From the IMG/VR virus record IMGVR_UViG_2897375277_000010: DNA of 32,278 nt, one strand, 5' to 3'. Below the pieces are notes generated by a model. That model was not told the DNA's origin and ran no database searches. It saw only the letters and a program-made list of their open reading frames with translations. The stretch is from a virus. Taxonomy: Duplodnaviria > Heunggongvirae > Uroviricota > Caudoviricetes. The translations under genes were made by a program, and so were the position numbers. Below, one piece after another: positions 10,551-24,489 of the stretch (position 1 is the stretch's first letter; every line of letters starts with the position of its first letter).

Positions 10551-10898
10551 TCAACTCACAGGGATGGTTAACGAAAGTGGCTGGCCGGTGTCGTTGTGCT
10601 GGCCGGTTAACGTGACCGTCATTCGCCCGTCAAAGCTGCGCGCCGTGGTGACGGATGACAGGGTGACGCGGGGTTCCCATTTCAGCACCGCCATGTAACA
10701 GGCGACCTTAATCTGCAACTCAAGCGCCGGGGTCTGCGGCTGGTCAATCATTGATGCCAGCAACGAGCCGTAATCACGACGCATCACCCGTGAGCCGACC
10801 GGTGTGCGCAGGATATCGCCGATACTCTGGCTGATATGCTCAAGGTCAGTGACAGTCAGGCCATCACTGCGATTCATTCCGAGATAACGTGCTGTCAT
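10551..10898 (-). CDS. W: Baseplate wedge protein W (GPW/gp25 family), 115 aa
   Basis: 115-aa ORF between V and J; P2 gpW length. Confidence 0.85.
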   Translation of the reverse strand: MTARYLGMNRSDGLTVTDLEHISQSIGDILRTPVGSRVMRRDYGSLLASMIDQPQTPALELQIKVACYMAVLKWEPRVTLSSVTTARSFDGRMTVTLTGQHNDTGQPLSLTIPVS

Positions 10899-11530
10899 TT
10901 TGTCCCCTGCGTCCAGCTGTCACCTGACTTAACACCACCGTGACCGTGGTCATCCACCTGAACGCCGTTAGACGTGAATTTCCCGTCGGTATGCGCGATG
11001 TTGCCGCGCATCGTCCCGCCCTTCTGCACTTCCAGCGTGCCGGTAGTCAGTTTGTTGGTGCAGACCACCTCCGGTGTGTCCAGGGTGATGCGGGTTGATG
11101 CTTTCACCATAACCACCGGCACCGAGGCAGTAACAGAATCAGAAGCCGTCACGCTGGCCGTTTTAATTCCGCTTACCGTGAGTGCACTGGTTTCGGGTTC
11201 ATACTCAATCACCGCCCCGTCAGGGAAACGGATATGCAGGGCATCCGCCGACGCAGACGGTGCGGGGTTATCGCCGGAATAAATCCCCGGCAGAACGAAC
11301 GCCGTGTCGAGTTCACCGCCCACGGCCAGAATCAGCACCTGTTCCCCCACGGAAGGTGCCCACCATGTGCGCGAACGTCCTGCACGATGGGTCAGCCACT
11401 GAAGCCAGTCAGTGCACATGCCGCCGGTCTGCACACGGCAGCGACCGGCGTTAAGGTCGGTTTCGACGACAAGGCCGGTGCGGATCATGTTGCGTATAAA
11501 GCGAAGTATTTCATTGTATTGTGTATTCAT
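10895..11530 (-). CDS. V: Baseplate spike protein V, 211 aa
   Basis: ORF track extends to 11608, but the internal ATG at 11528-11530 gives a 211-aa product (MNTQYNEILRFIRNMIRTG...) matching P2 gpV length; the upstream extension would overlap the divergent promoter region. Confidence 0.8.
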   Translation of the reverse strand: MNTQYNEILRFIRNMIRTGLVVETDLNAGRCRVQTGGMCTDWLQWLTHRAGRSRTWWAPSVGEQVLILAVGGELDTAFVLPGIYSGDNPAPSASADALHIRFPDGAVIEYEPETSALTVSGIKTASVTASDSVTASVPVVMVKASTRITLDTPEVVCTNKLTTGTLEVQKGGTMRGNIAHTDGKFTSNGVQVDDHGHGGVKSGDSWTQGTK

Positions 11531-11616
11531 TCGAGAATGATGATTCTGTACAATCTCGAAGTAAATCACGTCACGCTTTTTGGTGCACAGAACAACAAGG
11601 AACAACAAAATCCATT
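11531..11616. promoter_or_regulatory. Divergent intergenic region: expected late promoter for V-W-J-I-H-G and promoter/RBS of the divergent cargo gene
   Basis: 86-bp gap between the V start (minus) and the cargo ATG at 11617 (plus); AAGGA at 11597-11601 upstream of that ATG; promoter assignment is by position only. Confidence 0.4.
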
Positions 11617-12690
11617 ATGAATATTTGCTTTTTTTCATCAGAAACAACTAAAAGATTGCTCAAAGATTACCAAACCTTTTTGGAGAACCTTACCCCTGAC
11701 ACAGATTTTGAATCAGGCCGAAACAAAATAATCATTCAAGCAATAGACTTCATTTCAAAAAAACCAGAAGATTGGGACGAAAAATCCCTACACAGCATTA
11801 AAAGACTCGGCGATGAATTTAAAAGATTACTAAAAGAAAAGGGAGATAATGAAGACAGCATCAATCTTATATTCACTTATTTCCTTAGGTTCATTATTGA
11901 ACCAAGCATTTTCTCTACAGAAGTAGAGTCACCCGACTCACTCCCAGAATACATCAAAGATTTCGCTCAGTATAACTATGGTAAATTCGATACTCGAAGC
12001 CAAAAAAGCATAGATATATCTCTAAGAGGAATGCCATTAGCAATAGCTAAGGAGATTCTAAGCTCTGGCAATGTGGATACATATAAAAAATATCTCAATA
12101 AGTTAAACGAAGGCCATAAACTTCTCGAAGAATATGATTCTACCTTCAAAGAACAACAGGCTAAAGTAGAGTCAATTAAAGAATCATTAAAGGGATACGA
12201 GACTGCTTTCAATTTCGTTGGACTCTTTGATGGCTTCAATTCACTTGGCAAAAAGAAAGCGAATGAAATTTTAGCATCAAGACTCATTCTTATTTTTTTA
12301 GCTATAATTATTCCATCCCCCTTAATATATTATGGCATTCACAAATTACCGGCCCTCGAAGCAACAAATGCTGCCACATATTTCATGTCAGCGCTACCTT
12401 TTGCATCAGTTACATTGATTTTCATGTATTACTTTAGAGTTGTACTGATAAATCACATATCGTTACGAACTCAGATTATGCAAATAGAACTTAGAAAGAC
12501 CCTTTGTCAGTTCATTCAGAGTTATAGCGACTATTCCTCAAAGATAAAGAAAAACAACCAAGATGCTCTTTCAAAATTTGAAGATGTAGTATTTTCAAAC
12601 ATCATGCTATCCGATGATAAGATACCATCTACATTTGATGGCATTGAACAAATAGCATCGCTAATCAATTCACTGAAAAATGGCAAGTAA
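11617..12690 (+). CDS. AT-rich cargo protein, 357 aa, with two predicted transmembrane helices near the C-terminus; function unknown
   Basis: ORF track 11521..12690 starts at a GTG that overlaps V; the first ATG is at 11617 (MNICFFSSETTKRLL...). Coding sequence is visibly AT-rich against the GC-rich flanking tail genes. Hydrophobic segments LILIFLAIIIPSPLIYYGI and ATYFMSALPFASVTLIFMYYF; Lys/Glu-rich helical N-terminal domain. Occupies the P2 orf30 position between S and V, on the opposite strand. Confidence 0.7.
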   Translation: MNICFFSSETTKRLLKDYQTFLENLTPDTDFESGRNKIIIQAIDFISKKPEDWDEKSLHSIKRLGDEFKRLLKEKGDNEDSINLIFTYFLRFIIEPSIFSTEVESPDSLPEYIKDFAQYNYGKFDTRSQKSIDISLRGMPLAIAKEILSSGNVDTYKKYLNKLNEGHKLLEEYDSTFKEQQAKVESIKESLKGYETAFNFVGLFDGFNSLGKKKANEILASRLILIFLAIIIPSPLIYYGIHKLPALEATNAATYFMSALPFASVTLIFMYYFRVVLINHISLRTQIMQIELRKTLCQFIQSYSDYSSKIKKNNQDALSKFEDVVFSNIMLSDDKIPSTFDGIEQIASLINSLKNGK

Positions 12691-12692
12691 TA

Positions 12693-12727
12693 GTAAAAGA
12701 CCACCTCCTGAGGAGGTGGCTTTTCAG
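12693..12727. terminator. Bidirectional rho-independent terminator between the cargo gene (+) and tnpA (-)
   Basis: Perfect 8-bp stem CCACCTCC/GGAGGTGG with a 3-nt loop (12701-12719), flanked by GTAAAAGA on the left and CTTTTCAG on the right, giving a T-run on either strand. Confidence 0.6.
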
Positions 12728-12772
12728 AATGCCCCCTATAAGGGGGGGAGGGCGAATGTCATATTCCGTTTT

Positions 12773-13207
12773 CTACTCTAGCAACTCCATCTGCTGTTCA
12801 TGTGTTTGTTCCATCTTTTCCTGATGCCTCACATATCGTCTGATAATTTCTTCGTTCACGCCTACCCTATCAACAAAGTAACCCCGCGACCAAAAATGGT
12901 TTCCCCATAACTTCTTCCTGATATGCGGGAATCGATTGTAGAGTCTGATTGCACTGCGACCTTTCAGATGCCCCATCAGAGTAGATATTGAGATTTTTGG
13001 CGGCACTATTACGACAAGATGCACATAATCTGGCTGTACATTTAACTCCAGAACCTCGCAATCTTTTATTCCGCAAAGAATATAGATGGTTCTGTACAGC
13101 TCCTTGCCCAATTTATCCCTCAGGATCCTAAAGCGGTACTTTGGCGTCCAGACTATGTGATATTTGCAATGCCAATATACATGTGATGAACTTCTGTAAA
13201 GCCCCAT
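12773..13207 (-). CDS. tnpA: IS200-family transposase TnpA (HUH Y1 transposase), 144 aa
   Basis: ORF 12773..13264; likely start at ATG 13205-13207 (MGLYRSSSHVYWHCKYHIVWTPKYR...). Contains the HUH-type motif YVHLVVIVPPK and the downstream Tyr region WSRGYFVDRVG characteristic of IS200 TnpA. Confidence 0.8.
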   Translation of the reverse strand: MGLYRSSSHVYWHCKYHIVWTPKYRFRILRDKLGKELYRTIYILCGIKDCEVLELNVQPDYVHLVVIVPPKISISTLMGHLKGRSAIRLYNRFPHIRKKLWGNHFWSRGYFVDRVGVNEEIIRRYVRHQEKMEQTHEQQMELLE

Positions 13208-13428
13208 GTCAGTTTGTCTCCTTTTACTTGTGGTGAGTAAGCAGAGATATTCCGACATGGGCATTCTTCAGGCTATAGCCTTACAGGTTCAATCACCACC
13301 TCCCTAGTAGGTGGTTTAGGGATAACAATAAAAGGCCAATAACTGGCCTTTTATTTATTAACGTAAAAACTCAAAATAAACCATGCTAAATCAAATGATT
13401 TCATTTTTATATTCTCAGATGATTAAAG

Positions 13429-13881
13429 CTAGCGATTCAGGTGAGCCAGAATAATCTCTTCAATCATCTGCACATCCTCACCGGTAAAGCCGAGCAGAGG
13501 ACGCGCCGGATAATCAATTTTCTTACCGTCTTTCCGGGTTTCTTCCGACAGACCGAACTGATGCACACTGGCGATTTTCGGCGACTTCCCGCCGTAAAAT
13601 TCCATTGATGCCTGTTCCGGGCTGGCGCGGATATGCAAAAAACGACTGGTGATAAGTTTCGCAAACATTTTTCGCTTAACACGACCAGTCTTTTTTCTGG
13701 CGCTCTGCTGCTGGCGTGGCGCGTAGGGTGTGCCGTCCGGGGCTTTCTGTGCCATCACCCGACGCTGCTGACTCTGACGCAGACGTTTCGCCAGTTCGGC
13801 GCTCAGTCGCCGACGCCCTGACGGTGACAGCGATTCAATCAGTCCGGTCAGCCGGTCTTCAAAACGCTTAAACTCATTCAT
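13429..13881 (-). CDS. S: Tail completion protein S, 150 aa
   Basis: 150-aa ORF; P2 gpS length; overlaps the R stop; last gene of the O...S operon. Confidence 0.82.
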   Translation of the reverse strand: MNEFKRFEDRLTGLIESLSPSGRRRLSAELAKRLRQSQQRRVMAQKAPDGTPYAPRQQQSARKKTGRVKRKMFAKLITSRFLHIRASPEQASMEFYGGKSPKIASVHQFGLSEETRKDGKKIDYPARPLLGFTGEDVQMIEEIILAHLNR

Positions 13882-14341
13882 CCCACTTGCTCACCAGTTC
13901 GCCATTGATGTAAAGCTCCACCGGGCGGGTGACCGGCTCCGGCGGCGGGGGTTCCGGGATATTCTTCACATGCAGCGCACCATCAACCTCGCTGACCAGC
14001 GTGCGCTCGGTCAGCATCAGGCTGATGCTGATATCAAAGCTGCTGTCATTGTTGATGTCCGCATAAAACGTGAAGCCCTTTTTCTGGCCTTCGTCGGTGG
14101 TCATGATGTCGGGCTGATTTTCCCGCAGCCACGCCAGCACCGGCACAATGAGCAGGTCAAAATCACCGGTAAAGTCGGTCACAATGACATTGAGCGTGTA
14201 ACGCTTTTCGAATGACAGCGACGTCGCCAGTGTGGAGGCAATACTCCCGTTATCCACGAATATCCGCAGCATCTCGGGGCTTGTTTTCAGCACCGTGACG
14301 GCATCAGTCAGCGCCCTGCGCAGGCTGTCGGGTTTGAGCAT
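13874..14341 (-). CDS. R: Tail completion protein R, 155 aa
   Basis: 155-aa ORF; P2 gpR length and synteny. Confidence 0.82.
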   Translation of the reverse strand: MLKPDSLRRALTDAVTVLKTSPEMLRIFVDNGSIASTLATSLSFEKRYTLNVIVTDFTGDFDLLIVPVLAWLRENQPDIMTTDEGQKKGFTFYADINNDSSFDISISLMLTERTLVSEVDGALHVKNIPEPPPPEPVTRPVELYINGELVSKWDE

Positions 14342-22938: not shown

Positions 22939-23478
22939 TCAATCATCATGATGAGAGAACCTAGCATTTACTATTCTTGAGTGAAGATTGTTTGCAAATG
23001 ATAAGTTGCTTAAAATAACACTAAACACACACTTTATTTGTAACCAGCACATAAAATAAACAAAGGTGATTCCAATCATTCTAATAAGATCAGAATACAC
23101 CACTGAACTCGATAGCACAGAGCCTATTGATTTAAACAGATAAACAAACAAGATCGAAAGCATTACTACTGCTGAAGTAATTACAACGTAAATTAGCTTT
23201 TCAATTCGAGGTGCATCTTTCGTATTCTTTATGTAATCAACATCATCATTGACAATGCTTGCAATTGCATTCGGATATAAAAAACCAATCCATAATCCAA
23301 CTATGGTAAAAATTGCAGCAGATATGTTTTGCAAAACACCCAGTATATCTTTTATATCACTATAGTTAACATGAGCTTTCAGCCAATAGGAGGCCGCAGC
23401 AATTAGAAACAGAATTAACAAATTCCATTTCCATTGTATTATCAATGCCTTTAAATCCTTACTTGTTTGAGGTGACAT
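22939..23478 (-). CDS. Predicted four-helix integral membrane protein, 179 aa; candidate effector of a two-gene cargo operon
   Basis: ATG at 23476-23478 immediately follows the TAA of the upstream gene (TAAATG); four hydrophobic segments of about 20 aa each; strongly AT-rich. Confidence 0.75.
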   Translation of the reverse strand: MSPQTSKDLKALIIQWKWNLLILFLIAAASYWLKAHVNYSDIKDILGVLQNISAAIFTIVGLWIGFLYPNAIASIVNDDVDYIKNTKDAPRIEKLIYVVITSAVVMLSILFVYLFKSIGSVLSSSVVYSDLIRMIGITFVYFMCWLQIKCVFSVILSNLSFANNLHSRIVNARFSHHDD

Positions 23479-24489
23479 TTATGCCTCCGCCGTTTTTAAA
23501 GATTTTTCTTCCACCTCTTCATTATAAAGGATTGTTTGGAGTAAATCATCACGAACAGCCTTTATTTCATGAAGGAGTTTTTCTGGAGAGAAATGCTCAT
23601 CCCCGGTAGAATCGCTGACAATTAATGCAGTTCTCGCCATATATTTTTTTAACCATAATGGGCGAGATGAATCTTTAAGAACAAAGCCAACATCAACCCA
23701 GTCAACATCATCTACATTTCTATCCAATAGTTGTTTTATTTCCTCTTCCGAAGGAGCGCCATCTACTCGAACCTCAATTTTTTTAGGTTTTGTAAACTTG
23801 GTTTGTTCTGTTCCCAAGAAATCCGATAGTACATTACTCACCAGACGTAATAACGGTTGCCGGGTATCCTCAACTTTTGCAACCGTAGTATCACGAATAA
23901 TTGTCTGAACAATTTTATCTCGTACATCAAGAATATTCGTCCCTGGTTTATTAACCTTCGTCACTTCAGCCTTAAATTTAAAAACGCAATTACACTTGCG
24001 TCCATTTTCATCTACATGCTTGAAAATTGTTTTAGAAATAAGAATGTCATCTTCCGAACATGAAGAACGAGCTCTAGTAAATGAGGTAGTATCCTTTTCC
24101 CTACCAAAATCACCGTGATTTACTACAAAATTAAAAATATAATTGCTTAACCTCGGTGTATCTGCACCTGAATGAGGAAATATAATGGATGCAATCTTGT
24201 TATATTCAGGAATTATCCAATAATAACATGGCTCAACCCAAATATAGTCTTTTCCATTCGTTTCTGTCTTTACTGTATCATTTTCTGTAGCACCAACAGG
24301 TGCGTTTTTTTTAACAGCGTGCAAACGTCCCTTCGCGGAACCTAATGCACGATACATTACCATCACCCGATCTTTTGTATCTGGATCGACAGCCACTCCT
24401 CGTGAGTAAGTTCTGGCTCTTAGCGGATGAGTTCCCGTATCCCACGGAATTGACTCCTCAACGCTTTTGTCATCAAGCCAAGCCTGCAA
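23479..24489 (-). CDS. Soluble cargo protein of unknown function, up to 336 aa (292-294 aa if started at the ATGs at 24363 or 24357)
   Basis: Long AT-rich ORF; first in-frame start is a TTG at 24487-24489 with no Shine-Dalgarno sequence, and internal ATGs lie at 24361-24363 and 24355-24357. No motif assignable by eye; tightly coupled to the downstream membrane protein. Confidence 0.7.
   Translation of the reverse strand: MQAWLDDKSVEESIPWDTGTHPLRARTYSRGVAVDPDTKDRVMVMYRALGSAKGRLHAVKKNAPVGATENDTVKTETNGKDYIWVEPCYYWIIPEYNKIASIIFPHSGADTPRLSNYIFNFVVNHGDFGREKDTTSFTRARSSCSEDDILISKTIFKHVDENGRKCNCVFKFKAEVTKVNKPGTNILDVRDKIVQTIIRDTTVAKVEDTRQPLLRLVSNVLSDFLGTEQTKFTKPKKIEVRVDGAPSEEEIKQLLDRNVDDVDWVDVGFVLKDSSRPLWLKKYMARTALIVSDSTGDEHFSPEKLLHEIKAVRDDLLQTILYNEEVEEKSLKTAEA

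Follow-up and report, generated by a model that had tools for sequence, protein, structure and literature searches.

The window analysed here, the whole stretch of 32,278 nucleotides, is a P2-like prophage with its late genes (R, S, V, W and J) on the minus strand. On sequence evidence, positions 12693-13327 (minus strand) are an insertion sequence (IS) of the IS200 group, 635 bp long, that lies together with a plus-strand cargo ORF in the interval between S and V. Probably, this copy integrated once beside a terminator in a P2-like phage lineage, was inherited there and is now a decaying passenger that is most likely no longer autonomous. The features of the region are as follows.

13874-14341, minus strand: R, late gene.
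13429-13881, minus strand: S, P2 tail completion/virion morphogenesis gene, last gene of its operon and upstream of the terminator (Pfam Phage_tail_S, E=6.5e-44).
13330-13352, both strands: bidirectional intrinsic terminator AAAA-GGCCA-ATAAC-TGGCC-TTTT, common to the cargo gene (plus) and S (minus), and target of the insertion.
12693-13327, minus strand: IS200-group (IS1004-like) insertion sequence, complete, with ends taken from comparisons of occupied and empty sites.
12773-13207, minus strand: tnpA, 144 aa, Y1 (HUH-family) transposase (PF01797, NF033573, PDB homologues).
11617-12690, plus strand: cargo gene, 357 aa, with a predicted membrane-anchored C-terminal half, intact after the insertion.
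10895-11608, minus strand: V, late gene.

The ends of the IS were determined with three pairs of occupied and empty sites: the mltD/yafE intergenic region, which carries the IS in strain CUPF09 and is empty in K-12, the yfeW/yfeX region, and the cargo/S junction of the window, which was compared with L001, a prophage with an 83%-identical cargo allele and without IS. The plus-strand ends obtained from all three are [A]GTAAAAGACC...GGGATAAC[A]; the tnpA-sense strand reads 5'-TGTTATCCC...GGTCTTTTAC-3'. The register is ambiguous by one base, 12692-13326 also being possible. The three comparisons revealed no target-site duplication. Joined without the IS, the flanks in the window read GGCAAGTAATA+ATAAAAGGCC, which differs from L001 by one base. 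Since every informative place listed for the exact cargo allele carries the IS, no perfect empty site was found, and the empty site was taken from the 83% allele and the two chromosomal sister loci. Identical ends are present in 37 independent copies, and in L020, a Tatumella contig of 849 bp, the right end (RE) lies directly against the left end (LE) in agreement with these boundaries (CTTTTAC/TGTCAC; a slash marks the end of an element or the point of insertion here and below). The homology of the E. coli sister copies to the window is confined to approximately 12692-13334, and the recurrence of the sequence with identical ends at unrelated loci is more than chance would give. The tips TGTTAT... 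and ...CTTTTAC are not inverted repeats of each other, so that terminal inverted repeats are absent. The size of the element is 630-635 bp, and tnpA is the only ORF that fits between the ends.

The profile matches and the empty site bear out the earlier note, which had proposed a hairpin-flanked, intergenic insertion of the IS200/IS605 family (IS200 group) between the cargo gene and S. Its start, 12693, is exactly the RE boundary, 2 nt past the cargo stop codon TAA (12688-12690). Its end, 13400, overshoots by 73 bp: the real end is 13327, and 13328-13400 is continuous with the uninterrupted L001. The distance of about 30 bp that it gave between tnpA and the S stop is likewise too short, because the S stop codon is located at 13429-13431, with the LE tip 101 bp and the tnpA ATG (13207) 221 bp beyond. 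It had proposed a comparison with an uninterrupted related junction, and L001 provided this empty site and thereby defined the insertion site. A domesticated gene with phage-continuous flanks, which it had named as the finding that would overturn its reading, is excluded, since the L001 empty site shows an interruption and the flanks are thus not continuous through tnpA.

The A/T-flanked palindrome AAAAGGCCAATAACTGGCCTTTT described previously is indeed present at 13330-13352 (DNA fold −11.7 kcal/mol, z = −7.1), but its assignment to the IS end does not hold, as it is found in the L001 empty site. There it is uninterrupted and lies 5 nt past the stop codon of the 83% cargo allele. Phage S164, which lacks a cargo gene, and P2, with orf30 as cargo, have other hairpins at their S-V junctions and not this palindrome. 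Its presence in L001 and its absence from the S164 and P2 junctions identify 13330-13352 as the native terminator of the cargo cassette, which also closes the S operon. The consensus terminator scan did not call this palindrome, and folding energies were therefore used instead. One could place the palindrome inside the IS as a built-in left-end terminator, with an element that extends to approximately 13355-13400: the left end of IS200 contains a terminator hairpin at nt 12-34 (PMC4513863), and a hairpin with a T-run lies just outside LE in every copy of this IS. However, this outside hairpin has a different sequence at each locus and occurs also without the IS, at the empty K-12 site (mltD/yafE) and in L001, which rules it out as an IS end and leaves this placement with practically no probability.

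The presence of an HUH Y1 transposase gene on the minus strand is confirmed by matches to Pfam Y1_Tnp (PF01797, E=1.2e-38) and NCBIfam NF033573 transpos_IS200 (142.9 bits, cutoff 55). The tnpA start is identical to the RefSeq start in the sister copies L002-L004, and RefSeq annotates sister copies as IS200/IS605 family transposase. PDB homologues are 2ec2, 2xm3 (3e-19) and 2a6m (2.6e-18), and the solved TnpA structures matched are those of Sulfolobus, ISDra2 and ISHp608. The class-1 signature Y---Q (described in PMC6006769) is kept as Y125-V-R-H-Q129 with the catalytic Tyr125 and Gln129; among 120 relatives, the respective columns contain Y in 108 and Q in 101. The HUH motif of this copy reads Y61-V-H63 instead of an intact His-hydrophobic-His, and Y61 aligns with the first His of HUH in the PDB homologues. 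This departure concerns the function of the copy; the assignment to the IS200/IS605 family stands.

The two ends of the element, the adjoining target and the leader of tnpA contain the following features.

13328-13333, minus strand: target and left cleavage site TTTTAT, flank DNA outside the IS (from the logo of 37 flanks).
13315-13327, minus strand: LE tip TGTTATCCCTAAA with the presumed guide TAAA directly 5' of the hairpin foot, conserved in all copies.
13296-13314, minus strand: LE subterminal hairpin CCACCTaC-TAG-GGAGGTGG, whose stem has a mismatch at 13308 that is specific to the lineage.
13185-13295, minus strand: predicted tnpA leader stem-loop pairing the Shine-Dalgarno sequence and the AUG (from the RNA fold and the analogy to the IS200 leader).
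12732-12746, minus strand: second RE-proximal hairpin, GC-rich, downstream of the tnpA stop, with a 4-5 nt insertion at its edge (12748-12752).
12701-12719, minus strand: RE subterminal hairpin CCACCTCC-TCA-GGAGGTGG, followed by TCTTTTAC (12700-12693), which closes the element.

The LE and RE hairpins have the common stem CCACCTCC/GGAGGTGG, and the matched hairpins reported before at 12701-12719 and 13296-13314 are thus found again, the second with one mismatch (13308). The DNA fold of the LE hairpin amounts to −6.5 kcal/mol here versus −9.5 kcal/mol in a consensus copy; for the RE region a value of −17.3 kcal/mol (z = −4.5) was obtained. On the plus strand, the RE hairpin reads CCACCTCC-TGA-GGAGGTGG with a perfect 8-bp stem. 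The consensus terminator scan called it terminator-like on the minus strand only, i.e., for tnpA.

Elements of the IS200/IS605 family move as single-stranded DNA. TnpA binds the subterminal hairpins on one strand, cuts at sites set by tetranucleotide guides 5' of the hairpin feet, excises a single-stranded circle and integrates it on the 3' side of a target recognised through pairing with the left guide (PMC5934647, PMC5027513). This mechanism is established for the family, and we infer it for the element described here. The copy integrated 3' of TTTTAT, 6 nt past the last G-C pair of the S/cargo terminator. By analogy to the IS608 rule, TAAA is the presumed guide tetranucleotide at LE, and its comparison with the target T-N-R-T would fit the pairing scheme in three of the four positions. 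At RE, the AAAG 5' of the hairpin foot and the terminal TTAC are identical to the guide/cleavage pair of the IS608 left end (PMC5934647). Located upstream, the terminator may shield tnpA from the S late operon.

The tnpA leader RNA has an MFE of −39.8 kcal/mol (z = −4.9), and its stem-loop is predicted to hide the ribosome-binding site of tnpA; among 10 distinct, near-identical copies, 0 compensatory pairs were found. A permissive Rfam search of 12400-13600 yielded only a chance-level hit to JA03 (E=0.82) and no IS200 sRNA family; thus, in contrast to IS200, no art200/STnc490-like sRNA was detected. Upstream of tnpA, no promoter-like site was found.

To describe the state of this copy, the prophage lineage was aligned with seven full-length copies from other loci (E. 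coli, another Escherichia species, E. albertii, Tatumella and Buttiauxella), nine full-length copies being considered in all. Five changes are private to the prophage lineage, at 13308, 13170, 13027 and 12867 and as the 4-5 nt insertion close to the right end (12748-12752). The change at 13308 lies within the LE hairpin stem and is unique among the nine copies. Three of the changes alter codons of tnpA.

13169-13171, minus strand: codon 13, His where the sister copies have Arg (R13H; change at 13170).
13025-13027, minus strand: codon 61, TAT (Tyr) versus CAT (His) in the sister copies, first His of the metal-binding HUH (C to T at 13027).
12866-12868, minus strand: codon 114, Arg in place of the Thr or Ser of relatives, in the conserved motif FVDTVG (change at 12867).

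At the HUH motif the sister copies read QPDHVHL, and of 120 homologue clusters, 116 have H as residue 61 and none has Y. The histidines of HUH, together with the Gln of Y---Q, bind an essential metal ion (PMC5027513, PMC6006769). At residue 114, 104 of the 120 relatives have T or S. R13H is milder, since 12 of the 120 relatives have H at this position (R in 88). The three coding changes are all non-synonymous (0 synonymous) and differences between genera are mostly at third positions; this is the pattern usually found in single IS copies on which selection no longer acts, with three changes being too few to tell neutral decay from chance. The copy has gained H61Y, T114R, R13H, the LE stem mismatch and the small insertion near RE since it inserted, and these changes together suggest that the transposase is probably dead and the copy most likely non-autonomous. 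The IS had been taken to be intact, and functionally it is not, with a Tyr for the first His of HUH, an Arg for the conserved Thr and a mismatched LE stem. Since tnpA is not truncated, the LE hairpin can still fold and neither cleavage-proximal sequence is damaged, this copy might be mobilised in trans by an intact one residing in the same cell.

The look-up reported 13 contigs with the exact TnpA and listed eight places. All seven listed places with flanking genes show the order S-tnpA-cargo-V; at the eighth, on a contig of 1 kb, tnpA adjoins a convergent ORF that is cut. Between the exact-TnpA contigs, the identity of the region amounts to 99.8-100%. For the exact cargo protein, tnpA adjoins in four of the five listed places; on the fifth contig, the sequence breaks off inside the IS, short of tnpA. 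The YVH variant was thus found at one locus only among the places listed (up to 10 per look-up). We read this distribution as one old insertion, which would have occurred in one P2-like phage lineage and been passed on with the phage.

Whether the copy might still be an intact, autonomous and active IS, with the Tyr in HUH tolerated and the hairpin mismatch harmless, depends on how these changes are weighed. The ORF is full length, both ends are present and the LE hairpin still forms; the hairpins of IS608 are naturally imperfect as well (PMC5934647). In addition, another family member, the D. radiodurans homologue in PDB 2fyx, likewise reads PDYVHL, which shows that a Tyr at this HUH position recurs in nature. 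The absence of Y61 from the relatives, the role of the histidines in binding the essential metal, the restriction of the exact variant to one locus among the listed places (7/7 with flanking genes; 13 contigs) and the exclusively non-synonymous coding changes alongside the LE stem change all speak against activity, which we regard as unlikely.

Far less likely still is that the phage has domesticated tnpA, for instance as a non-cleaving factor that binds ssDNA or hairpins. Loss of catalytic residues with retention of the fold is a common route to domestication, and several assemblies show stable inheritance of the copy along with the prophage. However, both IS ends are kept, the flanks are interrupted in comparison with the empty site, and there is no sign of purifying selection since the insertion (0 synonymous and 3 non-synonymous changes), and domestication was rejected on these three grounds. 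Moreover, L004, another P2-borne copy, has seven private amino-acid changes as expected for ordinary decay, and a promoter-like site upstream is missing from the sequence searched. We therefore retain the reading of a non-autonomous, decaying copy.

Full-length copies of the IS are found at unrelated loci in many genera, which marks the IS type, not the YVH variant, as mobile. They are uncommon in E. coli, where 28 of 5426 complete genomes contain them, at up to 9 places per genome. A query with the IS only gave 380 genomes with any match, and most of these matches are fragments; the figure of approximately 1700 E. coli genomes from the first megablast was inflated by the S and cargo flanks in the query and was discarded. 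The particular insertion described here is present in none of the 5426 complete E. coli genomes.

The nearest named relative is IS1004 of Vibrio cholerae (IS200/IS605 family, IS200 group), which likewise has a single tnpA and a similar small size (approximately 0.63 kb). Homologues labelled IS1004 transposase by NCBI comprise a V. cholerae cluster with 77% identity and a K. pneumoniae fragment with 89%. In ISfinder practice, isoforms share roughly at least 95% DNA identity. The comparison with IS1004 was made at the level of the protein, and with about 77% identity to the V. cholerae protein the element is, judged by this practice, a distinct relative of IS1004 and not an isoform. IS200 (Salmonella) and IS1541 (Yersinia) belong to the same group and share the one small Y1 transposase, the subterminal hairpins and the lack of inverted repeats. 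As in IS200, a terminator lies immediately upstream of tnpA and the leader is predicted to hide the Shine-Dalgarno sequence (PMC4513863), but the terminator hairpin of IS200 is internal (nt 12-34; PMC4513863), whereas here it is supplied by the target. IS200 is also longer (approximately 707 bp versus 630-635 bp). IS608 (H. pylori) and ISDra2 (D. radiodurans) have homologous TnpA proteins and also insert on the 3' side of a short target, which is retained at the left flank; unlike them, the element described here has no tnpB. A further difference from IS608 lies in the T-rich target, which is linked to a hairpin ahead of it, whereas adjacent duplex DNA 5' of the IS608 target is tolerated and not stimulatory (PMC5027513). 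Altogether, this is a known kind of element that behaves in a known way.

To derive the target rule of this IS lineage, copies were collected with a scan for the LE hairpin, which gave 29 loci spread over many genera of the Enterobacterales as well as 7 viral contigs. Directly ahead of the element, 37 independent left flanks read T-T-T-(T>C>A)-(A>G)-T over six bases, with T at −5 and −4 in all 37, T at −1 in 36 and A or G at −2 in 36, so that the insertion point is directly 3' of TTT(T)AT. A perfect GC-rich stem ending at most 9 nt before the element was found in 26 of 33 flanks, compared with 4.6% at random positions and 4.0% after TTNRT, and most of the remaining flanks contain imperfect yet stable hairpins. 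The mean flank MFE is −16.8 kcal/mol versus −8.6 and −7.2 kcal/mol in the random and after-TTNRT controls, respectively. The distance from the last G-C pair of the stem to the insertion point is 6-9 nt in 32 of the 37 flanks, with a mode of 8. The copy in the window obeys this rule (GGCC-TTTTAT/, 6 nt).

IS1541 insertions have reportedly been found beside terminator-like stem-loops, an observation attributed to Odaert et al. in 1998. A survey from 2026 describes terminator-like sequences directly upstream of ISs, most strongly for IS200/IS605 (PMC13548323). In the lineage analysed here, RE (AAAAG-hairpin-TCTTTTAC/) shares its architecture with the targets, which consist of an A-run, a GC hairpin and approximately 8 T-rich nucleotides up to AT/, and terminators may hence be read as RE mimics. 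The LE hairpin alone, with TGAT/ 8 nt later, also fits the target rule, and 40-nt solo left ends are found after terminators in eight species; these could accordingly be one-hairpin mini-elements. A tentative proposal, to which we assign a low probability, is that the lineage may choose its targets by structure as well as sequence, using terminators either as right-end mimics or as the exposed non-template strand of a terminating transcription bubble, and that solo left ends could be mini-elements mobilised by TnpA and not mere scars of abortive excision.

For the prophage, the insertion has few consequences. As already noted, it is intergenic and touches no reading frame of the phage or of the cargo; based on this, it is judged to be neutral for the phage. 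S transcripts still encounter the native terminator before they reach the IS. The cargo stop codon is unchanged in comparison with L001; the cargo protein gave no Pfam match above threshold (SidM below threshold only), no NCBIfam match and no PADLOC match. The cargo gene is now separated by 635 bp from its native terminator, with the RE hairpin alone in between. It is plausible that this hairpin now serves as the only terminator of the cargo gene, as the earlier note had stated, but the case is weak, since the plus-strand stem is followed by CTTTTC with only four T and was not called a terminator there by the scan. Equally possible is read-through of cargo transcripts antisense to tnpA up to the native terminator, given that the insertion parts the cargo gene from it.

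The IS adjoins the exact cargo allele at every informative place listed, as would be expected if the cargo gene and the IS had entered the S-V hotspot together as one mobile unit. Yet the 83%-identical allele is located at the same place, with the same terminator and without the IS, the IS ends bracket 635 bp without the cargo gene, and IS200-group elements carry only tnpA between their ends. A composite of cargo gene and IS was rejected on account of the IS-free 83% allele, and its probability is close to zero.

The region should be annotated as a 635-bp IS (12693-13327) with a transposase that is probably dead, and with the native terminator at 13330-13352 still ending the S operon; beyond this correct annotation, the copy is of little importance. 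Within the family, the case exemplifies the published generalisation that IS200/IS605 elements lie closely downstream of intrinsic terminators, and it supplies an exact target logo and the spacing for one enterobacterial lineage. Both could guide an experiment on how a single-strand transposase locates terminators.

The prophage carries accessory genes at two places:

Window 22939-24489, minus strand: two cargo ORFs adjoining the portal gene, with matches to the PADLOC candidate defence system PDC-M18.
Window 11617-12690, plus strand: cargo gene of the S-V hotspot, 357 amino acids, no family match.

The two portal-adjacent ORFs matched the PADLOC models M18B (7.4e-17) and M18A (8.4e-27) and contain no Pfam domain; they constitute the prophage's second accessory locus. 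For the S-V cargo gene NCBIfam and PADLOC returned no family match, and Pfam gave only a sub-threshold match to SidM. About 60 complete E. coli genomes carry an allele of this gene, with 83% identity, at the corresponding position.

The same IS type was also observed in an E. coli prophage and IMG/VR contigs (L004, L051, L053), where it has the portal gene on one side and an AAA-ATPase cargo gene on the other. This site is a second P2-like cargo hotspot with the IS, and the insertion is again located directly after a hairpin and TTTTAT. The IS copy found there has seven private amino-acid changes and is therefore also decaying. The replacement of the first HUH histidine by tyrosine that marks the window copy was also found, by alignment, in a solved homologue, the putative transposase of D. 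radiodurans (PDB 2fyx), which reads PDYVHL, whereas ISDra2 TnpA reads PDHVHL. The same substitution has thus arisen independently.

Full-length IS copies are rare in E. coli (28 of 5426 genomes). Altogether, 322 of the 415 matching places in this species are plasmid-borne, and most plasmid matches, judged from 30 records taken at even intervals from the 393 that matched, are an unannotated left-end fragment of 107 nt that corresponds to window 13221-13327 (e.g., positions 1201-1307 of L058, NZ_CP019905.1). The right-end half (IS nucleotides 1-332) is also frequent among the E. coli matches.

Two other loci depart from the full-length form. In Citrobacter amalonaticus (L033), about 230 bp from the left-end match, a derivative that lacks tnpA retains a left end together with a right end (CCACCTTCTAAGAAGGTGGACTCTTTAC) and resembles the PATEs, miniature derivatives in the IS200/IS605 family. 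On an 849-bp contig of Tatumella terrea (L020), TnpA is truncated by an internal deletion. The right end there is joined straight to the left end (CTTTTAC|TGTCAC); this junction could come from a tandem copy, from circularization or from faulty assembly.

A further form is a 40-nt solo left end, TGTCACCCCTAAA-CCACCTCC-TGG-GGAGGTGG-TGATTGAT, which is located directly after terminators in eight different species (L007, L008, L014, L016, L018, L019, L023 and L028). At all eight loci it ends exactly 8 nt beyond the foot of the hairpin, a distance identical to that of the right-end cleavage site, and its terminus is TGAT, in agreement with the target rule (T-N-R-T). Solo left ends may be scars of abortive excision or mini-elements with one hairpin.
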